Shown: one piece after another, positions 9,615 to 10,128 of the stretch | Layout: every line of letters begins with the position of its first letter | Numbering within the stretch: the stretch's first letter is position 1 | NCBI RefSeq assembly: GCF_013315695.1 | Contig: NZ_CP054353.1 | Reading direction: 5' to 3' (one strand) | DNA from: Escherichia coli | GTDB lineage: Bacteria > Pseudomonadota > Gammaproteobacteria > Enterobacterales > Enterobacteriaceae | DNA length: 64,000 nucleotides | Notes under the pieces: generated by a model | The model's input: the letters and a program-made list of their open reading frames with translations, nothing else | Database searches by the model: none | What the model was told of the DNA's origin: nothing | Made by a program: the position numbers and the translations under genes

Positions 9615-9693
9615 AACCCCCTCCTGTAACTGTAGTTATGTACAGGTGTTATTTTTAGCTGTGTGGATAACCAGTGTCAATTGGTAATATTGC

Positions 9694-9726
9694 CTATGGG
9701 GCATCTATGGGGCATGTATGGGACAC
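9694..9726. repeat. Three tandem 11-bp repeats near the prophage end (candidate integrase arm-type sites)
   Basis: ctatggggcat, ctatggggcat, gtatgggacac in tandem, about 120 bp from the host junction. Confidence 0.45.
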
Positions 9727-9838
9727 TTTTTATCGGCGAAATCCGTCGAAGTTCGTCGACATCGAAAACGAATCATCTGTCCAACCCTTGAAAAATGGCG
9801 CTCCTGGACGATCTTCGTCGATTTTTAAAAATGTTGCG

Positions 9839-9907
9839 TCACGCGCGTAACGTGACAGGGTTAATATCACAAAGCAACGCCACTTCACCAATTGTGTAAA
9901 GCGCCAT
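9839..9907 (-). pseudogene. mlrA: mlrA (yehV) 5' fragment: 22 native codons then stop, truncated by prophage integration
   Basis: Minus-strand ATG at 9907 translates MALYTIGEVALLCDINPVTLRA then TGA; matches the MerR-type N-terminus I recall for MlrA. Confidence 0.75.
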
Positions 9908-10128
9908 CGTCTCACCCTTGCTCGCGAGGTCCCGGTTTAACTTTAGACGCAGTTTTGCGAACCAGGTAGTTTTGCCCGTTTTTTGTGCATCTATAGGGTG
10001 ATTTTATTTTTGCCAGGCGATTTTGAGTGATCATACTCACGAATTCTCATTTTTCTGCAAGAGTTCAAAGAAAGTTAAACGCAGGCAATGTATGTTACGC
10101 GTTTTAAAGGGAAGTGTGGTTTGCGGGT

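Follow-up and report, generated by a model that had tools for sequence, protein, structure and literature searches.

A lambdoid prophage junction in the 5' end of Escherichia coli mlrA, with candidate integrase arm-type sites

Prophages in mlrA and the junction in the window

Prophages in the proximal part of mlrA (yehV) of Escherichia coli abolish mlrA expression and the production of curli (PMC3874044, PMC5931665). Here we analyse a stretch of 64,000 nucleotides from E. coli (contig NZ_CP054353.1 of assembly GCF_013315695.1; one strand, 5' to 3', hereafter the window), in which mlrA is interrupted by phage DNA at position 9840. A sequence-only reading of the window, made without database searches, had pointed to yehV as an integration site of lambdoid phages including Shiga toxin (Stx) phages, and had predicted impaired curli expression from the loss of csgD activation; the use of this site and the loss of csgD expression and curli upon its occupation are both published (PMC3874044, PMC5931665, PMC8309913). 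The link between mlrA prophages and curli has been documented in O157:H7 and other Shiga-toxin-producing E. coli since 2000–2016. The reduced csgD/curli phenotype was shown for O157, O103 and O113 strains, and curli were restored by mlrA in trans in O103 and O113 lysogens (PMC3874044). Over 95% of clinical O157:H7 isolates harbour a prophage within mlrA, and in the O157 strain PA20 excision restores the native gene (PMC5931665). Excision and circularisation have been reported for Sp15, a prophage at yehV (PMC2669165), and non-Stx as well as truncated phages have been reported at this site (PMC8309913).

The Stx1 prophage VT1-Sakai/Sp15 of O157:H7, also CP-933V (AP000400), occupies the same host gene as the prophage in the window, has the same 20-bp core and leaves the same 22-codon yehV' remnant. 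The two also share an adjacent dinI-like gene with an SOS box and promoter, and an arm which is about 92% identical and contains a three-unit repeat array. They differ in that the prophage of the window comes from a non-O157 lineage, with no stx annotated in its relatives; further differences concern the region of the tail fibre and small genes beside dinI, and the repeat units differ at three positions. In stx-negative mlrA prophages (IAI39, AF14, MSB1_4I, N1 and others) the junction is identical or 99–100% identical to that in the window. Junction, core, truncated yehV', neighbouring dinI-like gene and the consequence for curli have all been described previously. The arm-site motif presented below is a possible, modest addition.

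In phage lambda, the attachment sites of the phage (attP) and of the right prophage end (attR) contain core-type sites around a 7-bp overlap region, arm sites P1, P2 and P'1–3, which are bound by the N-terminal domain of the integrase (Int), and sites for Xis, IHF and Fis. The mlrA system resembles lambda in its heterobivalent tyrosine integrase with an arm-binding domain, the inverted repeat around 7 bp, the phased direct repeats in both arms, the location of int and xis beside the left prophage end (attL), and an excision that would restore the bacterial site (attB). Unlike lambda, it has an arm-binding domain of another family (PF12167 was matched) and another arm motif, its core lies inside a coding sequence with inactivation of the gene, and it is known here from its sequence. 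The three-unit array is int-distal and the pair int-proximal, which is the reverse of lambda. Judged at the sequence level, the locus has the features of an integrase-made attR and of a lambda-type heterobivalent integrase system.

We read the region as the integrase-distal junction, attR in lambda terms, of an stx-negative lambdoid prophage in the 5' end of mlrA, and assign this reading a probability of about 0.9. A minus-strand open reading frame (ORF) at 9839–9907 starts with ATG at 9907, encodes the peptide MALYTIGEVALLCDINPVTLRA and ends with TGA at 9841–9839, a stop codon made by phage DNA. The peptide is a 100% match to residues 1–22 of K-12 MlrA. Homology to the host ends at 9840, as E. 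coli genomes with an uninterrupted mlrA align rightwards from this position only; the proposed prophage–host junction within mlrA is thereby confirmed. On the right, the mlrA–btsS intergenic region with the mlrA upstream region (9908–10113) is unchanged host DNA, 99.4–99.7% identical to uninterrupted genomes and also compared with K-12, and is followed by btsS, btsR and the yeh genes. The mlrA upstream region is now directed into the phage arm, in the same direction as the dinI-like gene. On the left, the junction is bordered by structural and late genes of the phage (L-K-I-J, lom, the side tail fibre and the dinI-like gene, all within 1–9614). In the RefSeq/PGAP annotation of AF14 and MSB1_4I, the mlrA 5' remnant is given as a 'hypothetical protein' pseudogene.

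A 751-base query spanning the site was searched against 5426 complete E. coli genomes. At least 80% of it was covered in 441 of them (about 8%), indicating a similar phage junction, and the equivalent junction is found in IAI39 and in hundreds of other sequenced genomes. No exact match to the window was present among the complete E. coli genomes searched. The phage side had been described as AT-rich, which we could not reproduce: GC content is 0.41–0.47 at 9600–9850, compared with 0.36–0.51 in the neighbouring host DNA. Base composition was rejected as a boundary marker and the boundary was placed by homology, because GC shows no step at the junction.

The attachment core CCTGTCACGTTACGCGCGTG (20 bp, minus strand) is located at 9840–9859, or 9840–9860 with the preceding C. 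Alignment showed it to be identical at attB (K-12, strain 504237), at attR (window, VT1-Sakai, IAI39, AF14, MSB1_4I) and at attL (AF14, MSB1_4I and many IMG/VR contigs), and in the VT1-Sakai record AP000400 the same 20 bp are annotated as the attachment site of the phage, and the remnant of 69 bp as yehV'. At 9860, the C (from codon AAC, which is AAT in K-12) occurs in the uninterrupted strain too and is therefore a native host allele, so that attB and attP share 21 bp in such hosts. As the core spans bases shared by host and phage, the last seven of the 22 remnant codons are also carried by the phage. The earlier count of 22 native codons is thus correct with respect to the MlrA residues present, but seven of these codons fall in the sequence common to phage and host.

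The hairpin scan revealed an inverted repeat in the core, GTCACG and CGTGAC around the 7-bp sequence TTACGCG, both in attR and in the attP deduced from attL plus attR. Two inverted core-type integrase sites around an overlap region are the usual layout. From its position between the half-sites, TTACGCG is most likely the overlap region where strands are exchanged. The hairpin of the inverted repeat is followed by a T-rich run (9857–9837) and lies between the mlrA upstream region and the dinI-like arm. Phage vB_EcoS_phi330 (PV189401.1) was considered as an independent intact attP and rejected, as its record shows two tandem copies of the 20-bp core between dinI and int (L004, 14388–14427); this arrangement is most likely an artefact of joined prophage ends and not a real attP.

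In the closest relatives xis and int are found at the far end of the prophage, and the label attR, already chosen in the sequence-only reading, fits the lambda convention. The O157 literature names the btsS-side junction the 'left junction' (PMC8309913). The two primers of the published O157 'yehV left junction' polymerase chain reaction (PCR) correspond to 9556–9577 and 10140–10162 of the window. The host-side primer is an exact match, while the phage-side primer, located in the dinI-like gene, matches at 17 of 22 bases. By these matches, the standard O157 junction PCR probably misses this lysogen, and PCR primers derived from the O157 phage are unlikely to work with this variant.

Repeats in the integrase-distal arm

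Three head-to-tail 11-bp units, TGTCCCATACA TGCCCCATAGA TGCCCCATAGG, are located in the int-distal arm at 9690–9726 on the minus strand, at a distance of 114 bp from the core, and are candidate arm-type sites. Their heptamers of the form TG(C/T)CCCA are at 9725–9719, 9714–9708 and 9703–9697 (minus strand, mlrA sense). Tandem Repeats Finder reports the array at 9694–9722 with a period of 11, 2.6 copies and 94% matches. The heptamer by itself is not over-represented in the window (15 occurrences versus 17 expected). The array is the sole run of TG(C/T)CCCA with 11-bp spacing in the 64 kb, and no such run occurred in 200 shuffles. A search with the 11-mer CCCATARATGC, one mismatch allowed, gave three matches in the window versus 2.9 expected and is uninformative alone. 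A one-mismatch copy of the 11-mer, CCTATAGATGC at 9987–9997 (minus strand), lies in host DNA upstream of mlrA and is consistent with chance.

The same motif is found in the other arm of the prophage. In the 50-kb prophage of AF14, the 19-base word GTGTCCCATNNATGCCCCATA has exactly two copies, one per arm and in the same orientation, where 0.00 would be expected. The second copy belongs to the int-proximal arm, where it lies inside the 3' end of int and 53 bp away from the core. The Int of AF14, which is encoded in this relative outside the window, contains the domains Arm-DNA-bind_2 (PF12167, E = 2e-23) and Phage_integrase (PF00589, E = 1.1e-17).

Conservation was analysed in integrase relatives with 82% (yecE-site prophage), 76–71% (IMG/VR contigs), 66% (Min27, phi367) and 49% (Yersinia phage vB_YenM_30.14) identity. 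Every sampled lineage, from 49% to 100% Int identity, has two TG(C/T)CCCA units 11 bp apart at the 3' end of int. These units are in different reading frames, and the proline codons within them are CCA and CCC, in this order, in all cases; that synonymous codons do not vary points to selection at the DNA level. In the distal arms of Min27, phi367 and the Yersinia phage, which are non-coding, there are eight, four and two units, respectively, about 110–120 bp from the core and in the same orientation, while their cores and arms are not alignable with those of the window. Among the sampled relatives, conservation of Int is highest in its N-terminal 70 residues. The IMG/VR loci provided int-proximal arms only and no new distal arms, as most of them end right after int or run into host DNA. 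Taken as a sequence argument, the motif pair in the int-proximal arm, the arm-binding domain of Int and the retention of the motif in distant relatives with different cores support the proposal of the sequence-only reading, and the 11-bp repeats very probably represent arm-type sites of the integrase.

Several points weigh against this assignment. The int-proximal copies are part of a coding sequence (VPxMPH), so their conservation may be partly at the protein level. A comparison of the Sakai and window arms as a test of conservation had to be discarded and replaced by the more distant relatives, as the two arms are about 92% identical throughout and the comparison is uninformative. Binding of Int to the repeats is proposed from sequence evidence. 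Finally, the repeats lie just upstream of the promoter of the dinI-like gene and could serve that promoter.

This last possibility, that the repeats act on the dinI-like promoter, as an activator site or UP-like element, and play no part in recombination, could account for their ending about 10 bp upstream of its -35 hexamer TTGACA at 9680. It would not account for the motif at the 3' end of int, far from any dinI gene, or for its presence beside other genes in the distal arms of Min27 and the Yersinia phage, and we regard it as very improbable. Occupation by the excisionase or by another accessory DNA-bending protein instead of Int is a somewhat better founded alternative, which we still consider unlikely. 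Phased direct repeats within a single attP arm are the typical binding place of such proteins, for example X1, X1.5 and X2 for lambda Xis, and the three head-to-tail, helically phased units of the Tandem Repeats Finder array in the int-distal arm resemble this arrangement. A motif pair in the other arm is, however, what is expected of Int arm sites. Moreover, the motif is present in Min27 despite a longer annotated excisionase gene (300 bp versus 255 bp), the N-terminal domain of Int is conserved, and a separate weak array is a better candidate for accessory sites. This second array, TTCGACG-like with a period of 10 and about 2.7 copies, lies between the arm repeats and the core (9733–9759, minus strand; Tandem Repeats Finder score 33, 76% matches). 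It is present with changes in Sakai and in the yecE prophage, and may possibly be bound by the excisionase or another accessory protein.

The assignment of the repeats to Int could be extended to related phages. The integrases of yecE-site prophages (PPyecE_EH1910) and of 933W/Min27-type Stx phages are 82% and 66% identical to AF14 Int and have the same domain layout, and these phages too have TG(C/T)CCCA pairs at the 3' end of int and arrays in the distal arm. They differ from the window in their cores and host genes, and the distal arm of Min27 has eight copies in four pairs. The yecE core, CCGTCAC(A/T)TTAACTGC(G/A)TG, resembles the mlrA core (L012, 411–431; L013, 647–667). In PPyecE_EH1910, with its Int 82% identical to that of AF14, the distal arm is nearly identical to that of VT1-Sakai at the yehV site, and the core is related but distinct. 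This looks like a retargeting of the core with the arms retained.

In its widest form, our interpretation is that the TG(C/T)CCCA units are arm-type sites, hitherto undescribed, of an integrase family with the PF12167 domain that is widespread among enterobacteria and includes the integrases of mlrA-, yecE- and Min27/933W-type Stx phages. The attP layout would be fixed, with a pair overlapping the stop region of int and, across the core at a distance of about 115 bp, an array comprising two to eight units. We put forward both the family-wide role and the fixed layout tentatively, as propositions whose chances are only just short of even. The literature searched contained nothing relevant on arm-type sites of Stx or yehV phage integrases, which is not proof that they are undescribed. 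If the interpretation is correct, the motif could predict prophage ends and attP in these phages, and it would explain how related integrases keep their arms while changing their cores. As a conserved arm motif, it could also help to delimit prophages of this integrase family.

The opposite prophage end and the fate of mlrA

The prophages of AF14 and MSB1_4I have a size of about 48–50 kb, and at their far end xis, int, the core and mlrA codons 17–243 are followed by yohO and yehW. The Int of AF14 is intact with 428 amino acids. In MSB1_4I, ISKpn26, an element of the IS5 family, interrupts int after about 119 codons (L007, 47727–50000; L008, 727–3212). The absence of int from the window, as noted in the sequence-only reading, was borne out by tblastn with Int and Xis of the relatives as queries: no homologue of either was found in the 64 kb (best E = 0.6). 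The same is true for stx, which is not annotated in the matching stretches of related genomes; 11421–14059 was covered by ORF listing, and 58148–64000 is outside both.

The AF14 and MSB1_4I prophages likewise contain no annotated stx; their late region consists of Q, tRNAs, an SASA-family esterase and holin. The late regions of the related prophages (L002, 25000–36500; L007, 24000–34000) have the layout of Stx phages, including DUF1378 and DUF826, without stx. As far as the relatives show, stxA and stxB are thus missing from the place of a Shiga-toxin-converting prophage, between the Q/tRNA genes and the lysis cassette. The late region of AF14 additionally holds an insertion sequence (IS) of type IS1, a phage-borne ompC and a tolA-like gene.

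The relatives match the window in different parts. AF14 is 100% identical at the junction and is identical over 9400–10150, and has neither the four IS1 copies of the window nor its deletions. MSB1_4I shares the IS1 junctions of the window, with 99.99% identity in the host flank and 99.1% in the tail region, and has 5.1 kb more between two IS1 copies, which makes one additional IS1–IS1 deletion in the host flank of the window. The best match for the prophage is strain N1 (99.5%), and the divergence of the tail genes of the window is about 0.5–0.9%. A further point against our reading is that int, xis and the mlrA 3' half of the window prophage are extrapolated from relatives which differ among themselves; the condition of int in the genome from which the window comes is presumed accordingly.

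The MerR-type helix-turn-helix domain (MerR_1) comprises residues 4–72 of MlrA according to Pfam. With the break at residue 22/23, the DNA-binding domain of MlrA is therefore cut. At the junction mlrA is reduced to 22 codons, but it is better called split than truncated, with the other 221 codons intact beside int in the relatives. When the 5' part from the window was joined in silico with the 3' part from MSB1_4I, the resulting 243-residue protein was identical to K-12 MlrA, and precise excision would therefore restore mlrA. A genome search showed the mlrA 5' region to be single-copy in AF14.

At attL, the mlrA frame is interrupted by a stop 11 codons upstream of the core, and ATG, GTG and TTG are all absent ahead of the core. 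We had considered that the phage supplies a replacement for the MlrA N-terminus at attL; this was rejected in view of the in-frame stop and the lack of a canonical start. For the promoterless mlrA fragment at attL, RefSeq/PGAP gives a normal coding sequence 'HTH-type transcriptional regulator MlrA', which has 228 residues and an ATC start, lacks residues 1–15 and carries no pseudogene flag (AF14, L003, 2019–2705; MSB1_4I, L008, 3248–3934). Gene-presence surveys would score lysogens of the AF14/MSB1_4I type as mlrA-positive and miss the disruption.

The following sequence of events would be consistent with these data. A tyrosine integrase would insert the prophage into the 5' end of mlrA via the 20–21-bp core at codons 16/17–23, with strand exchange by Int in the central TTACGCG between the inverted half-sites GTCACG and CGTGAC. 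The N-terminal domain of Int would hold the 11-bp-phased TG(C/T)CCCA units, of which two overlap the stop region of int 53 bp from the core and three are in the int-distal arm 114 bp from the core. After insertion, the mlrA upstream region and 22 codons would stay at the junction in the window, and the other 221 codons would be located about 48–50 kb away behind int, without a start codon. With the MerR-type domain cut, no functional MlrA is predicted to be made, and MlrA-dependent activation of csgD, curli and biofilm would be lost or reduced. Through the action of Int and Xis on attL and attR, mlrA would be restored exactly, provided that int is intact.

The junction marks the strain as a lysogen with a split MlrA, a regulator of curli and biofilm, and a weak csgD-dependent biofilm is predicted. 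The loss of curli and biofilm is expected for this strain as a prediction that depends also on rpoS and other regulators. Two published observations speak against a simple loss: truncated distal MlrA fragments, when expressed, gave back some Congo-red binding (PMC5931665), and curli output is also governed by rpoS, rcsB, motility and other factors (PMC3874044). Distal mlrA fragments can be expressed by run-off transcription, without the normal action of a DNA-binding factor (PMC5931665).

The effect on biofilm would be reversible only if the prophage can still excise. It may instead be truncated or locked, with the attachment sites as relics and mlrA permanently inactive. As ISKpn26 breaks int in MSB1_4I, the best relative for the host flank, which shares the IS1 junctions of the window, the split of mlrA may be irreversible. 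IS1 is abundant in the lineage, the window containing four copies together with associated deletions, and truncated phages at yehV were reported in stx1-negative O157 (PMC8309913). On the other hand, int and xis are intact in AF14, the attR arm, core and repeats of the window are intact, and the tail module has no obvious truncation up to the edge of the window. We consider a fossil junction a real possibility, although we lean somewhat towards a prophage that has kept its ability to excise. The question concerns present activity and does not affect the identity of the junction.

Further features of the phage and host DNA

The lambdoid tail module (1–9365, plus strand) was identified by megablast to phage records and E. 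coli prophages and by the annotation of AF14 and MSB1_4I. It comprises the end of L, K, I, J, a Lom-like porin, the side tail fibre and two small ORFs, and continues beyond the left end of the window. Next to the junction, the final phage gene is the dinI-like gene (9366–9614, minus strand; 82 residues), an ORF annotated in AF14 as 'DinI-like family protein' in RefSeq. Its promoter-like site and LexA box are located at 9630–9680 (minus strand). The promoter scan found TTGACA at 9680–9675 and a second hexamer ending at 9651, with 10 of 12 matches. The LexA box CTGTACATAACTACAG at 9645–9630, upstream of the gene, is a perfect match to CTGT-N8-ACAG, and AP000400 annotates a putative promoter and an SOS box at the homologous positions. 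Promoter and LexA box are situated in the attachment arm, directly downstream of the arm repeats.

The four IS1 copies are at 20494–21261, 31148–31918, 39156–39924 and 43800–44568; one of them is placed between fbaB and yegT and one inside gatA. IS1-associated changes relative to AF14 are a loss of about 7.3 kb including yehI and yehK, and the loss of yehA–D. The 5.1 kb lost between two IS1 copies relative to MSB1_4I contain genes for an HNH endonuclease and a tyrosine recombinase, a duplicated thiamine pyrophosphate (TPP) riboswitch, rcnR, rcnA, rcnB and a yehA fragment. An IS4 element is located within a WGR/DUF4132 gene in the molR/yehH region, as in AF14 and MSB1_4I; its position, about 23670–25020, is taken from the annotation of these relatives. 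The antitoxin small RNA (sRNA) OrzO-P at 20220–20295 (minus strand; Rfam, 98.9 bits) marks a zor-orz type I toxin–antitoxin locus about 200 bp from an IS1 insertion. The sRNA CyaR at 50328–50413 (minus strand; 100.7 bits) and the thiM TPP riboswitch at 32501–32597 (plus strand; 71.2 bits) are ordinary chromosomal features.
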